DNA of 64,000 nucleotides, taken from assembly GCA_963662265.2 (NCBI GenBank), contig CAXXHA010000029.1, positions 64,001 to 128,000 of the forward strand, given 5' to 3'. Below the pieces are notes generated by a model, which was not told where the DNA came from, made no database searches, and saw only the letters and a program-made list of their open reading frames with translations. This DNA is from Spirochaetia bacterium. Lineage in GTDB: Bacteria; Spirochaetota; Spirochaetia; CADAEX01. Below are positions 2,982 to 5,864 of this stretch, in pieces (the first letter of the stretch is position 1; every line of letters starts with the position of its first letter). The position numbers and the translations under genes are program-made.

Positions 2982-3099
2982 ATGGGGGCGCGGCTTTCAA
3001 ACAACCTGCTTTGCTGGTGGTTGTTGATTTCAGTAAAAACTGTAATAATTATCTGCAGCTTAAAAAGAATAAACATAATTCCGGTATATAAAGAGAAGT

Positions 3100-4074
3100 A
3101 TGAAAAAAAAATTATTAACACTGATATTATTTATAACAGCAGCAGTATATCTGTCTGCAGAAGTATTTGTTGATTTTGACAGTTCTGTCAATCAGGGAGA
3201 TATAGTAGCTGTTTACTTATATTCTGATAATAATATAGATAATATAACTTTGACCCTAAGACGCAATAATAAAAATTTCGGAAAGTTCCGAGGATTCCAG
3301 CTTGAAAGCAATGGTTTAAACATGCCAGGCGATAAGTCGTGTTATGTTGTTATAGTTTCCGTGGCTTCGGATGCTCTTCCGTCTGAATATGATATTGATA
3401 TCAGATGTCAGACTGAAGGGTATCCTGTAAGGAAAACAGGAAAAATAACTGTAGAAAAAAAGAAATTCAGAAGAGAGGAAATCCCCTTATCAAGAAGCAT
3501 GACGACTCTCAGGAAAGATGAGAGTGAAAGGAGAAAGAAGGAGACCCGGGATATAATAAAGCTTTACAGGAATTTCAACAAAAAAGATCAGTTCCTGGAA
3601 ACTGATTTTAAATATCCTTTGAAAGGGGAGTATCCTGTAACATCATGGTTCGGCGACAGGCGAATATTTGTTTATGATGACGGGGATAGGTCAAATTCCC
3701 TTCATAACGGGATAGATTATGCAGCTGTCAGGGGAACACCTGTTTATGCCTCCGGAAGCGGAAAAGTGGTATTTTCCGGAAACCGTCTCATTACCGGAAA
3801 CAGCATCATAATTGAACACTATCCCGGTTTTTATTCAGTATACTATCATCTTGATAAGGCTGAAGCTGTACAGGGATCTATGGTTTCAGGCGGAGACAAG
3901 ATAGGAGAAGTAGGGGCTACAGGTATTTCTACAGGCAACCATCTTCACTGGGAAGTCAGGAATCAGGGTATTGCGGTTGATCCGGAACAGTTTGTAGGCT
4001 CTCCAGTTATTGACAAAGATCGAATAATAAGTAATATTAATTCAAGTTTTTCGGATATAGACCGGGGGAGGTGA
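3100..4074 (+). CDS. M23 family metallopeptidase, exported
   Basis: Signal peptide; HNGID and HLHWE zinc motifs. Confidence 0.92.
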   Translation: MKKKLLTLILFITAAVYLSAEVFVDFDSSVNQGDIVAVYLYSDNNIDNITLTLRRNNKNFGKFRGFQLESNGLNMPGDKSCYVVIVSVASDALPSEYDIDIRCQTEGYPVRKTGKITVEKKKFRREEIPLSRSMTTLRKDESERRKKETRDIIKLYRNFNKKDQFLETDFKYPLKGEYPVTSWFGDRRIFVYDDGDRSNSLHNGIDYAAVRGTPVYASGSGKVVFSGNRLITGNSIIIEHYPGFYSVYYHLDKAEAVQGSMVSGGDKIGEVGATGISTGNHLHWEVRNQGIAVDPEQFVGSPVIDKDRIISNINSSFSDIDRGR

Positions 4075-4080
4075 TTCAGT

Positions 4081-4290
4081 ATCGCTTTTGTTAAAATTGA
4101 TGAGACAGAACCGCTTGAAAAAGCACTTAAAAGATTCAAAAGAATGGTAGAAAAAGAGGGTATTATCAGGGAATGGAAAAAAAGAGAATTCTTTGAAAAA
4201 CCATCTACTATCAACAACAGAAAGAAGAAAGCGATCATTCGAAAGCAGCAGAAAAAACTTAGAAAGCTGCAGGCAATGAAAAACTACTAG
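4081..4290 (+). CDS. rpsU: 30S ribosomal protein bS21, 69 aa, ATC start (absent from ORF track)
   Basis: Translates (M)[41 protein letters not shown]...MKNY*. SD GGAGGTGAT at 4067-4075; terminator follows. Confidence 0.96.
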
Positions 4291-4300
4291 AAATCTTCAG

Positions 4301-4330
4301 GGGAGTATATAAATAATACTCCCTTTTTTT
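4301..4330 (+). terminator. Intrinsic terminator of rpsU
   Basis: GGGAGTAT-N7-ATACTCCC followed by T7. Confidence 0.85.
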
Positions 4331-4493
4331 ATGCCGATAAGTGTGTAAATGTAATAAATGCTGTTGTATTATAAAAAAATGATTTCAGAATCAGTGTCTG
4401 AGTGATGCTGACAAAATAAATATACCGGGCAGCTTTCTGTTAAACAGTAAAGTGACTCCGGGCTGATATTATATTTAAAAAGCAGGAGTTATA

Positions 4494-5195
4494 ATGACTT
4501 CCGATGATGTAAAAAAAGAATTACTTGAAATGCAGAATACTGAAAAAGCTGTTCATTTATCCCGTTTTTTTAAAACCGGAAAAGGTGAATACGGGGAAGG
4601 TGACTGCTTCTGGGGAATCAAAGTACCTGACCAGAGAAAAACAGCAAAGAAATTCAGAAATATCGATCTTTCAGAACTTGATTACCTTATCAGGGATCCT
4701 GTTCACGAATGCAGACTCACTTCTTTATTAATTCTTGTTGAAAAATATGAAAAAACAGTTTCAGACAGGAAGAAAATTGTCGATTTTTATCTTGATAATA
4801 TTAAATACATAAACAACTGGGATCTTGTTGATCTTTCAGCACCTAAAATACTCGGCGCCTGGCTGTATGACAGGGAAAGGGAACTTCTTTACAGTCTTGC
4901 CGGATCCAGAGATTTGTGGAAGCAGCGTATTTCGATTCTTTCAACAATGTACTTTATTAAAAAAGGTGATTTTTTTGAAACATTTTCAATATCTGAATTG
5001 TTATTAAAACATGAGCATGATCTTATACATAAGGCTGTAGGATGGATGCTGAGAGAAATTGGAAAGAAAAACCTTGAAGAAGAGGAGAAATTCCTGAAAA
5101 AACATTACAGAGAAATGCCCCGAACAATGTTAAGATATTCAATAGAACGTTTTGAAGAGGAAAAAAGGCAAAAATATTTGAAAGGTCTTGTATAA
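4494..5195 (+). CDS. DNA alkylation repair protein (AlkD-like)
   Basis: FFKTGKGEYGEGD, INNWDLVD, HDLIHKAVGWMLRE, MPRTMLRY. Confidence 0.92.
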   Translation: MTSDDVKKELLEMQNTEKAVHLSRFFKTGKGEYGEGDCFWGIKVPDQRKTAKKFRNIDLSELDYLIRDPVHECRLTSLLILVEKYEKTVSDRKKIVDFYLDNIKYINNWDLVDLSAPKILGAWLYDRERELLYSLAGSRDLWKQRISILSTMYFIKKGDFFETFSISELLLKHEHDLIHKAVGWMLREIGKKNLEEEEKFLKKHYREMPRTMLRYSIERFEEEKRQKYLKGLV

Positions 5196-5269
5196 TTCAT
5201 CATAATATAGCTTATAATTTAAAAACATATTTTAAAAATAAAACAATGTTAAAGTAAAGGAGAAAAGAA

Positions 5270-5864
5270 ATGACTAAGAAAATTTTAGTACTGTTAACTA
5301 TTGCTTTGATAGTATTTGCTGCAGGATGCGGTTCATCACCGGCTCCGGCACCCGAACCAGCACCGGAACCAGCTCCACAGCCTCAGTCAATGGCTGATGT
5401 TCCCCAGTTTTTCCTGATGCCTCCAACTGCAGAAGATGCTCTCTACGGAGTAGGTGTTGCAAAAATGTCTTCACTTGATATGTCAAGAACAATGTCAATC
5501 TCAAGAGCAAGAGATGATATTGCCAGACAGGTTAATCTTCAGGTAAAAAATGCTATTACTGACTATGCGCAGGAAGCTGGAGCAGATGCTTCCCAGGCAC
5601 TTAAGTTTGTAGAAACTGTTTCAAGACAGATTGCAGATGCTAAACTTCAGGGCGCAAAACCGAAGGAAATGTATGCTGCAAAAGATGGAACTATCTATGC
5701 ACTGGTTGAGTACAGAATAAGCAATTTAAAGGAAGATGCTGCCGATGTATTCAAGAGAAACGAAGAAGCAGCTTTCTCAGAATTTTAAAGCATCCCAGGC
5801 TCTTGATAAACTCAATTTTGAACTCAGCAATAATCCAACAAAATCAAATCCTGTTACTGAGTAA
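5270..5864 (+). CDS. LPP20-family lipoprotein; apparent extra T at ~5783-5786 gives early stop at 5788
   Basis: Lipobox FAAG-C, Pro-rich linker, LYGVGVA...ARDDIARQV. Removing one T continues EFKASQALDKLNFELSNNPTKSNPVTE* to 5864, just before a terminator. Confidence 0.8.

Follow-up and report, generated by a model that had tools for sequence, protein, structure and literature searches.

Introduction

To our knowledge, very few core bacterial genes other than infC have a conserved AUC or AUA as their initiation codon. The infC gene of Escherichia coli begins with AUU and is governed by an autoregulatory circuit in which IF3 represses near-cognate starts, and the infC gene of Flavobacterium johnsoniae begins with ATA (PMC7797042). 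For rpsU, which encodes ribosomal protein bS21, an autoregulatory circuit has been described in Flavobacterium (McNutt 2023, PMC9976891; PMC13000457), and in F. johnsoniae a 13-bp helix between the Shine-Dalgarno (SD) sequence of rpsU and the anti-SD sterically excludes bS21, which results in autoregulation (Arpin 2026, PMC13000457). Other described systems link start-codon choice or bS21 to translational control. Immature 30S subunits of E. coli misinitiate on AUA (PMC6868393), the GTC start of Streptomyces sigR is repressed by IF3 (PMC5472188), and in Francisella the bS21 content of ribosomes alters which mRNAs are translated (PMC9578407, PMC13374519).

An initial annotation of a 64,000-nucleotide stretch of spirochaete DNA, called here the window, had pointed to an rpsU gene with an ATC start behind a very strong SD, and had taken the infC and Flavobacteriia circuits as established background, which the relevant portions of PMC7797042, PMC9976891 and PMC13000457 support. 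The computational analysis of this locus and of its counterparts in the phylum Spirochaetota is presented here.

Results

The initiation codon of rpsU

The rpsU gene extends from position 4081 to 4290 of the window, on the forward strand like all other features described here, and consists of 69 codons plus a TAG stop. Its 69-residue product is a full-length member of the Pfam family Ribosomal_S21 (PF01165, E = 1e-18, 67.2 bits against a cut-off of 27), with residues 4-56 matching model positions 2-54 of 55. No second bS21 gene was found in the genome, and the closest relative of solved structure is the Borrelia bS21 (chain 8fmw_U, E = 4.2e-21).

The first codons, ATC-GCT-TTT at 4081, are directly preceded in frame by TGA (4072-4074), TTC and AGT, and this TGA, three codons 5' of the ATC, leaves no canonical start possible for the full-length protein, as the initial annotation had argued. 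The first in-frame ATG, GTG or TTG is the ATG at 4144, which opens an ORF of only 48 amino acids. Since the Ribosomal_S21 match spans residues 4-56, initiation there, at residue 22, would cost F19, K20 and R21, which are invariant across 22 aligned relatives; the earlier statement that this start would delete conserved residues was therefore correct. Variation in the gene falls mainly on third codon positions, with summed minor-allele fractions of 3.69, 1.91 and 10.28 at codon positions 1, 2 and 3 of codons 2-22, and 17 of the 18 differences of a variant contig from run X4 are at third positions, four of them upstream of the ATG at 4144.

Alignment with the relatives has revealed that the ATC/ATA codon coincides exactly with the ATG or GTG of their rpsU genes, and a single genus carries ATC, GTG and ATG at the same aligned position (loci L006, L004, L010). 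Among 67 unique ATC/ATA loci, 18 have no in-frame ATG, GTG or TTG between the upstream stop and the ATC/ATA, and in a further 34 the sole candidate canonical start is a GTG lying within the SD, with a frame that shifts with the spacing. This GTG was rejected as the true start: it is impossible at the present locus, its frame is permitted in those 34 relatives and not conserved, and no spacer follows the purine run. Some NCBI protein records already start on ATC (P0012, locus L041; P0020, locus L033) or ATA (P0052, locus L045; P0101, locus L053). Reading frame, relatives, contigs and protein records together make it highly probable that the AUC at 4081-4083 is the initiation codon of rpsU.

The C at position 4083, whose confirmation had been proposed in the initial annotation, is supported by contigs from four runs that cover positions 4081-4083 with no other letter, namely X1 and X2, which share one sample, X4 from another study, and the RNA library X6; these are assembled contigs and not raw reads, and X1 and X2 may represent the source sample. 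As ATC is found in contigs of two independent studies and in both genomes of the same genus, it is not a sequencing error. The contig of the metatranscriptomic run X6 is 222 nt long and spans positions 4074-4295; it was not counted as expression because DNA can occur in such libraries.

Two other explanations of the reading frame have been considered. A start elsewhere, at the ATG at 4144 with a 48-residue protein, or an assembly error that replaced G by C at 4083, would agree with gene finders restricted to ATG, GTG and TTG, which would yield just the short ORF; it is very unlikely in view of the C in the contigs of both studies and of the RNA library, the same-genus genomes with ATC and synonymous changes downstream, the third-position variation running through codons 2-21, and the invariant family positions within the N-terminal 21 residues. 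Read-through or recoding of the TGA would produce a fusion of bS21 to the upstream M23-family peptidase, as the ORF at 3100-4074 and rpsU share one frame and are parted only by TGA-TTC-AGT. However, the upstream gene of the relatives ends in other frames (stop offsets of -8, -20, -23 and others), some relatives have no upstream gene, and this genome gives no hint of TGA as a sense codon, so that a fusion is hardly credible.

The extended Shine-Dalgarno sequence

The four 16S copies of the genome all end with GGATCACCTCCTTTCT, and therefore the sequence GGGGGAGGTGATT at positions 4064-4076 can form 13 bp with the 16S 3' tail: nine Watson-Crick pairs (GGAGGTGAT), three G-U pairs upstream and one U-G pair downstream. 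This agrees with the nine Watson-Crick pairs plus wobbles proposed initially, and the computed energy of the RNA duplex is -22.5 kcal/mol. Within the window the site ranks first among 400 seeded sites, in accordance with the initial annotation, and in the whole genome it is third of 25,551, four rDNA antisense matches having been set aside; the two stronger sites precede ORFs of just 10 and 12 codons. Among the 1,977 ORFs with a length of at least 250 codons the strongest site has -19.0 kcal/mol, and none reaches -20 kcal/mol. The rpsU gene is an outlier with an extended SD of the type found in Flavobacteriia (9-13 bp).

A spacer CAGT (4077-4080) separates the SD from the start codon, with six bases (TTCAGT) between the end of GGTGA and the ATC. 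The motif GGNGGTGAT(T) is conserved in the 67 unique ATC/ATA translation-initiation regions, and of 68 ATC/ATA genes 49 have 5 nt and 14 have 6 nt between GGTGA and the start, a tight spacing compared with the loose one (4-10 nt) of the ATG rpsU genes of the class. The mean SD energy is, in contrast, almost the same in both groups (-21.6 kcal/mol for ATC/ATA and -21.9 kcal/mol for ATG), which argues that the long SD is not there merely to rescue a weak codon.

The genome as a whole uses SD sequences widely, with sites at or below -8 kcal/mol in 564 of the 1,977 long ORFs versus 123 of 1,977 in a mock window, and spirochaetes are listed as a high-SD group (PMC7797042); it is not an SD-blind genome of the Flavobacteriia type.

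Distribution of rpsU start codons in Spirochaetota

The tabulation of start codons and SD strength across Spirochaetota suggested in the initial annotation has been carried out, and it has revealed that ATC/ATA with a near-maximal SD is kept across most of the class Spirochaetia. The aligned rpsU start codon is ATC in 41, ATA in 27, ATG in 37, GTG in 2 and ATT in none of 107 unique Spirochaetia loci; related genomes in these counts are not independent samples. That close relatives might all use ATG, a possibility raised by the initial annotation, does not hold, since ATC is found in both genomes of the same genus and ATC/ATA in 68 of the 107 loci. ATC or ATA occurs in 22 of the 25 families sampled, and rpsU of Spirochaetia carries a conserved initiation codon of the AUU/AUC/AUA type otherwise associated with infC. 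In the gene tree ATC and ATA have interchanged at least 12 times, whereas changes between ATC/ATA and canonical codons number about four. ATT is absent from the 68 starts of the ATC/ATA group, although the same genes use it for 123 of their 331 internal Ile codons. A Sphaerochaeta-like clade of 39 tree rows uses ATG throughout. The ATG lineages of the class do without the weak codon.

No ATC, ATA or ATT start was found at the 78 rpsU loci from other classes of the phylum, of which 39 start with ATG and 39 with TTG or GTG, often with GGTGA-extended sites. Median site energies in these classes are stronger for GTG (-20.9) and TTG (-16.0) than for ATG (-13.1). As judged from these comparisons, the combination of AUC/AUA and a long SD appears to be an ancestral trait of most Spirochaetia, and it seems to represent one end of a phylum-wide trend towards a long SD with a weak start (UUG/GUG) at rpsU.

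Genomic context of rpsU

The last codons of an M23-family peptidase gene (3100-4074, PF01551, E = 1.9e-30) encode the rpsU SD, and the TGA stop of this gene (4072-4074) lies within it. A promoter-like sequence TTGACA-16 nt-TAATAT (4010-4037, 10 of 12 matches) is located within the 3' end of the M23 gene and could give rpsU its own transcript; it is a weak candidate, since 7 promoter-like sites were found against 5.5 expected in shuffled sequences. Directly after rpsU, a consensus scan has identified a terminator-like hairpin (4299-4332) with a 10-pair stem at 4299-4325 followed by a T run.

The predicted RNA fold of positions 4036-4135 is no better than that of shuffled sequences (z = -0.01; 106 of 200 shuffles fold as well), and no Rfam match was obtained in positions 3000-5500 at E values up to 1. 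A small hairpin GGUGAU-AUCGCU was discarded as a regulatory element, as it is not kept in relatives with AUA.

IF3 is encoded in the genome, and its own infC gene appears to start at TTG and not at AUU, AUC or AUA, which gives no sign of a wider set of IF3-gated genes with such starts. A search for strong SDs in front of ATC, ATA or ATT gave 127 crude candidates, rpsU being the only convincing gene; all others look like non-coding frames as judged by eye. No initiator-like tRNA gene was recognised by aragorn among 40 tRNAs (with a single CAT-anticodon tRNA), a result that is uninformative because the assembly is 90.6% complete.

Discussion

Proposed mechanism

We give even chances to the reading in which the AUC start and the 13-bp SD helix jointly form a translational throttle that provides negative feedback on bS21. 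With its fixed spacing of 5-6 nt, the SD-anti-SD helix would hold the 30S subunit so that the near-cognate AUC sits in the P site, where the initiator tRNA would read it and bS21 would begin with (f)Met. The union of the strongest SD of the genome with a start codon that is among the weakest usable ones would be a throttle kept by selection: the helix would render mRNA binding nearly irreversible, and AUC or AUA would turn the inspection of the start codon, normally a task of IF3 on mature 30S subunits, into the rate-limiting step. The synthesis of bS21 would then rise with bS21-free or immature 30S subunits or with limiting IF3, and fall when ribosomes are replete, the predicted outcome being negative feedback on bS21. 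The bS21-free route is proposed because in Flavobacterium the 13-bp helix cannot coexist with bound bS21. From these considerations we infer, as the initial annotation had done, a circuit that may favour bS21-free or IF3-poor 30S subunits.

Two other interpretations of the same data have to be weighed. The weak codon may simply tune expression without feedback, the long SD being a lineage habit for robust loading and the codon scaling output to the stoichiometric need; ATC/ATA and ATG would then be near-equivalent through compensatory drift, and nothing would sense bS21 or IF3. This explanation, which we regard as possible but somewhat doubtful, accounts well for the equal SD energies of ATC/ATA and ATG genes, for the ATG of the whole Sphaerochaeta-like clade and of half of the loci in other classes, for the general use of SDs in the genome and for the lack of conserved RNA structure or Rfam elements. 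Pure scaling should, however, let the codon drift among ATC, ATA, ATT, TTG and GTG, yet ATT never appears and ATC/ATA persists in nearly all families with few switches to canonical codons; scaling alone also leaves unexplained both the tight spacing of the ATC/ATA genes and a 13-bp helix like the one that excludes bS21 in Flavobacterium. Termination-reinitiation, in turn, would have ribosomes that end the M23 gene at 4072-4074, held by the overlapping SD, restart at the AUC 6 nt downstream; being less strictly proofread they would tolerate the weak codon, and rpsU output would track M23 translation. In 42 of 67 ATC/ATA loci versus 4 of 37 ATG loci, the start lies no more than 60 nt from the end of an upstream ORF of at least 80 codons, so reinitiation could contribute, and an M23 homologue adjoins rpsU in 52 of the 120 loci examined; reinitiation and IF3 are the subject of a published study on E. 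coli (PMC2268962). As a full explanation it is nevertheless unlikely, for 25 of the 67 ATC/ATA loci have no such upstream ORF, stop-to-start distances spread from -4 to -58 nt, the weak promoter-like site could allow an independent transcript, and phylogeny confounds the association, nearly all ATG loci being members of one clade.

Comparison with described systems

The throttle proposed here resembles the rpsU circuit of Bacteroidia in the gene concerned, in a helix of up to 13 bp that is an extreme outlier of its genome, and in the predicted pairing energy (-14 to -21 kcal/mol in PMC9976891 and -22.5 kcal/mol here). It differs in that rpsU of Bacteroidia starts at AUG (PMC13000457) and their ribosomes are otherwise SD-blind, and in that the mechanism there depends on bS21 Tyr54, which stacks on A1534 and sequesters the anti-SD, and on the bS18/bS6 pocket. 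The position of Tyr54 corresponds to Lys53 in Borrelia (PMC10618245) and, by alignment to the Borrelia chain, to Ile53 in the present protein; the equivalence was drawn through Borrelia because a direct alignment with the F. johnsoniae chain 7jil_z extends no further than residues 4-48. The anti-SD sequestration that the initial annotation had carried over from Flavobacteriia does not fit this genome, given the wide SD use and the Ile53. Because the genome is not SD-blind and Tyr54 is absent, no more of the Flavobacterium model could apply than the steric exclusion of bS21, a mechanism so far known from Bacteroidia.

With infC the locus shares a conserved start of the AUU/AUC/AUA type, at which IF3 is known to reduce initiation (PMC7797042), on a gene of the initiation machinery. 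The regulator of infC is its own product, whereas the gene here encodes bS21, and an influence of IF3 on it would amount to cross-regulation; moreover, infC of this genome seems to lack a start of this type. The sigR gene is likewise an example of a non-canonical start as a regulatory input outside infC, with a different gene and codon, and the available portion of the abstract does not mention an extended SD or a link to ribosome composition (PMC5472188). Francisella shares a regulatory role of bS21 content and differs in having several bS21 paralogues, versus a single copy here (PMC9578407, PMC13374519).

A broader proposal, offered tentatively and more probably wrong than right, is that throughout Spirochaetota the 12-13-bp rpsU helix forms only on bS21-lacking 30S subunits and that AUC/AUA adds a second gate in most Spirochaetia, the device being old and general and not a peculiarity of Bacteroidia tied to SD-blindness. 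If so, the assembly state of the small subunit would control bS21 synthesis at two points, AUC/AUA being accepted only by IF3-poor or immature subunits. The AUC/AUA start that most of one class retains on the gene of a ribosomal protein, always behind a near-maximal SD, is a natural system, readily altered by mutation, in which two ideas could be tested: that bS21 is excluded by extended SD helices also in bacteria with ordinary SD use, and that the assembly state of ribosomes acts back on the synthesis of ribosomal proteins by way of start-codon fidelity.

Literature and annotation

No description of an AUC/AUA start or an extended SD for spirochaete rpsU was found in the literature searched, although the start has already been placed on ATC/ATA in NCBI records. 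Term searches in the text retrieved for PMC9976891 gave a single 'Spirochaet', where lineages that have bS21 paralogues are listed, and neither AUC nor AUU; its Figures S7-S11 (SD screens) could hold relevant taxa. Equivalent searches in the retrieved portions of PMC13000453, PMC10783764 and PMC7797042 gave no such start or SD for spirochaete rpsU.

Gene finders that accept only ATG, GTG and TTG cut rpsU to 48 amino acids here, or start it at the GTG within the SD elsewhere, and the SD escapes surveys when 5' ends are misplaced in this way, a difficulty of rpsU annotation that is mentioned in PMC9976891 itself. The bS21 records of the relatives differ accordingly in length, with 72 amino acids in JGI and older records versus 69 in those of NCBI.

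Initiation codon of rpsU in the window

The rpsU gene, coding for ribosomal protein bS21, extends from 4081 to 4290 on the forward strand, and its translation from ATC 4081 gives a 69-residue product that matches the Pfam family Ribosomal_S21 (E=1e-18, model positions 2-54/55). No second bS21 gene was found in the 3.77-Mb assembly. The sequence around the start is ...GACC GGGGGAGGTGATT CAGT ATC GCT TTT GTT AAA..., and the in-frame codons preceding the ATC are, moving upstream, AGT, TTC and TGA (4072-4074). This TGA is the stop codon of a 324-codon M23 peptidase gene (3100-4074, forward strand) read in the same frame as rpsU, and it bars any upstream start, as indicated in the initial annotation; when the full start set of NCBI table 11 was applied, the open reading frame 4081-4290 was called from ATC. 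The earliest in-frame ATG, GTG or TTG is ATG 4144, and a protein initiated at this codon would lack the first 21 residues, among them F19, K20 and R21, identical in all of 22 aligned relatives, in agreement with the earlier proposal that this start would cut a conserved N-terminal part.

Confirmation of base C4083 had also been sought in the initial annotation, and ATC was found in assembled contigs, not reads, from four sequencing runs that span 4081-4083 (X1 and X2, from one sample, possibly the source; X4, from another study; X6, an RNA library), with no other letter seen there. A variant contig from X4 differed from the window at 18 positions between 4074 and 4290, 17 of them third codon positions of the ATC frame and four located 5' of ATG 4144 (4104, 4110, 4119 and 4134). 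Both genomes of the same genus (L031 and L032) have an identical Shine-Dalgarno (SD) site and ATC, with synonymous changes just 3'. A base error at the start is contradicted by the contigs of two studies and by the ATC of the same genus, a gene truncated to ATG 4144 by the third-position variation that runs 5' of 4144, and read-through of the TGA from the M23 gene into rpsU by the relatives. The analysis as a whole shows that the initiation codon of rpsU is AUC, held by a 13-bp helix at a fixed spacing.

A promoter-like TTGACA-16-TAATAT sequence, near consensus, lies at 4010-4037, still within the 3' end of the M23 gene and 44 nt 5' of the ATC; the number of promoter-like sites around rpsU was no higher than the shuffle expectation. 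A terminator-like hairpin is located 3' of rpsU (4299-4325, forward strand). The downstream gene (4494-5195), whose product belongs to the DNA alkylation repair enzyme family (Pfam PF08713, E=3.3e-62), had no evident tie to rpsU.

Ribosome-binding site

The 16S rRNA 3' end is identical in all four copies of the assembly, GGATCACCTCCTTTCT. A pairing of 13 bp with this tail was predicted for GGGGGAGGTGATT (4064-4076), composed of 9 Watson-Crick pairs (GGAGGTGAT), three G-U pairs upstream and one U-G pair downstream; the pairing region of the tail is presumably about 1530-1542 in E. coli numbering. The duplex energy was -22.5 kcal/mol, which ranks first among 400 seeded sites in the window and third among 25,551 in the genome, four antisense rDNA hits excluded, so the SD described earlier as 9 Watson-Crick pairs plus wobbles and the strongest in the window was corroborated. 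The two stronger genomic sites, at -24.3 and -23.6 kcal/mol, both precede an ATG and an open reading frame of only 10 or 12 codons; they are on contigs G000:C13 (minus strand, reading frame 148746-148775) and G000:C25 (17029-17077), and may be due to chance, leader peptides or other causes. Among the 1,977 genomic open reading frames of at least 250 codons, each taken at its 5'-most canonical start, the minimum SD energy was -19.0 kcal/mol and none reached -20 or below. Sites at or below -8 kcal/mol preceded 564 of these 1,977 frames in the SD window versus 123 in a mock window, which indicates that the organism uses SDs generally.

Start codons of rpsU in the Spirochaetota

The codon aligned with bS21 residue 1 was tabulated. 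In the window genome and 38 relatives (L001-L039; L040, a partial match, was left out) it was ATC in 24, ATA in 6, ATG in 8 and GTG in 1, and among the best 80 of 558 relatives in species-representative genomes, all Spirochaetia, ATG 32, ATA 24, ATC 23 and GTG 1. Once 11 duplicates were dropped, along with a locus whose upstream sequence was too short, the 107 unique Spirochaetia loci had ATC (41), ATA (27), ATG (37) or GTG (2), and never ATT. ATC or ATA was present in 22 of 25 Spirochaetia families according to the family codes of the tool (21 of the 22 in the first set plus f24), and was absent in the sampled f23 (0 of 7 genomes) and f25. Outside the class but within the phylum, 78 loci (L121-L208) had ATG (39), TTG (29) or GTG (10) and no ATC, ATA or ATT, with 13 of these starts assigned by hand to the nearest upstream canonical codon. 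GGTGA was found in 42 of these 78 loci, and 42 of 78 had a site of -14 kcal/mol or stronger; median energies, which assume one shared 16S tail for all 78 loci, were -20.9 (GTG), -16.0 (TTG) and -13.1 kcal/mol (ATG). TTG or GTG is thus used in 39 of the 78, the weaker codon accompanying the stronger SD. The AUC start is real and far wider than the initial annotation knew: same-genus genomes use ATC, ATC or ATA accounts for 68 of 107 loci, and the case of relatives all using ATG is contradicted.

In 18 of the 67 unique ATC/ATA loci, the window's included, the stretch from the upstream stop to the ATC/ATA codon contains no in-frame ATG, GTG or TTG. In another 34 the sole upstream candidate is the GTG within GGTGAT, which is in frame at a 9-nt spacing and out of frame at 8 or 10, and 15 loci have further upstream candidates. 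Not this GTG but the ATC/ATA codon keeps the register with the bS21 protein. In alignments it stands opposite the ATG or GTG of relatives; within one genus ATC (L006), GTG (L004) and ATG (L010) all occur at this position. Variation in codons 2-22 was of coding type (3.69, 1.91 and 10.28 by codon position).

The AUC/AUA start is already present as database annotation. NCBI records start at the same codon, with 69-70-residue proteins beginning MAF or MAY, both at ATC loci (P0012, L041; P0020, L033) and at ATA loci (P0052, L045; P0101, L053), and JGI or older records of the same contigs begin at the GTG inside the SD, giving 72-73 residues (P0009, P0017, P0043). Doubly annotated loci are P0009/P0012, P0017/P0020 and P0043/P0050. 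No published description of an AUC/AUA start for spirochaete rpsU was found in full-text and in-paper searches. A 97%-identical relative, P0001 (71 residues, beginning MSIAFV), considered together with the X4 variant contig over 4074-4290, has its annotated start at a canonical codon that lies two codons further upstream; its strain would have a start-type codon in place of TTC 4075-4077.

Signs of selection on the start codon

In a gene tree of 108 unique rpsU coding sequences, start codon excluded, at least 4 switches between ATC/ATA and canonical starts were found (shuffle mean 32.8), almost all ATG genes forming a single Sphaerochaeta-like clade (39 rows, one ATC within). At least 12 switches between ATC and ATA occurred among 68 rows. 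ATT makes up 123 of the 331 internal Ile codons (37%) of the ATC/ATA-start genes, yet none of their 68 starts. With GCN as codon 2 in 66 of 67, an ATT-GCN start would make a +1-frame TTG at the ideal distance from a maximal SD; that this out-of-frame TTG explains the avoidance of ATT is speculation. GGTGA was separated from the start by 5 nt in 49 and by 6 nt in 14 of the 68 ATC/ATA genes, versus 4-10 nt in ATG genes, and mean SD energies did not differ (-21.6 versus -21.9 kcal/mol). A crude genome screen for a strong SD and an ATC, ATA or ATT codon with no canonical start for 12 codons retrieved 127 candidates, of which rpsU alone looks like a gene.

Possible regulation of rpsU

bS21 is a late-binding ribosomal protein. 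Subunits able to form the long helix and to accept AUC could be those that are bS21-free or immature, as three precedents suggest. In Flavobacterium, an rpsU SD-anti-SD helix of 13 bp leaves no room for bound bS21, and ribosomes lacking bS21 preferentially translate rpsU, closing a feedback loop (PMC13000457, PMC9976891); initiation at near-cognate codons, used by infC in E. coli (AUU) and F. johnsoniae (ATA), is lowered by IF3 (PMC7797042); and in E. coli, 30S subunits whose late assembly is defective misinitiate on AUA (PMC6868393). A circuit based on the AUC start would be a reasonable extension of two known circuits, any mechanism beyond this codon and the helix being suggested by precedent.

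The main rival is a tuning of expression without feedback. Termination-reinitiation, in which ribosomes from the M23 gene restart at the rpsU AUC, is also plausible in the window because the M23 stop sits inside the rpsU SD. Upstream genes abut 42 of 67 ATC/ATA loci versus 4 of 37 ATG loci, and the M23-rpsU pair is conserved in 52 of 120 loci; however, 25 of the 67 ATC/ATA loci have no abutting upstream gene, and most of the contrast with ATG loci comes from a single clade set against all others. Across many families the M23 gene lies directly 5' of rpsU and often ends at a TGA inside its SD.

With regard to feedback through bS21-free subunits, the Flavobacterium model does not transfer simply. 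ATG-using Spirochaetia lineages keep the same long SD. The anti-SD sequestration put forward initially was unsupported: unlike Flavobacterium, the window's genome is not SD-blind, and Ile53 aligns at the Tyr54 position of bS21. In the Borrelia ribosome this position is Lys53 and the anti-SD is unresolved in the structure (PMC10618245). No initiator tRNA genes were found among the 40 tRNAs of the assembly (90.6% complete, 41 contigs). A further point against a simple transfer is that infC of the window's genome (contig G000:C8, locus L209, about 1477-1500), unlike that of E. coli and F. johnsoniae, seems to have TTG as its start, preceded by AAGGTAGGTG; this start was chosen by visual inspection of an alignment to the IF3_N profile.
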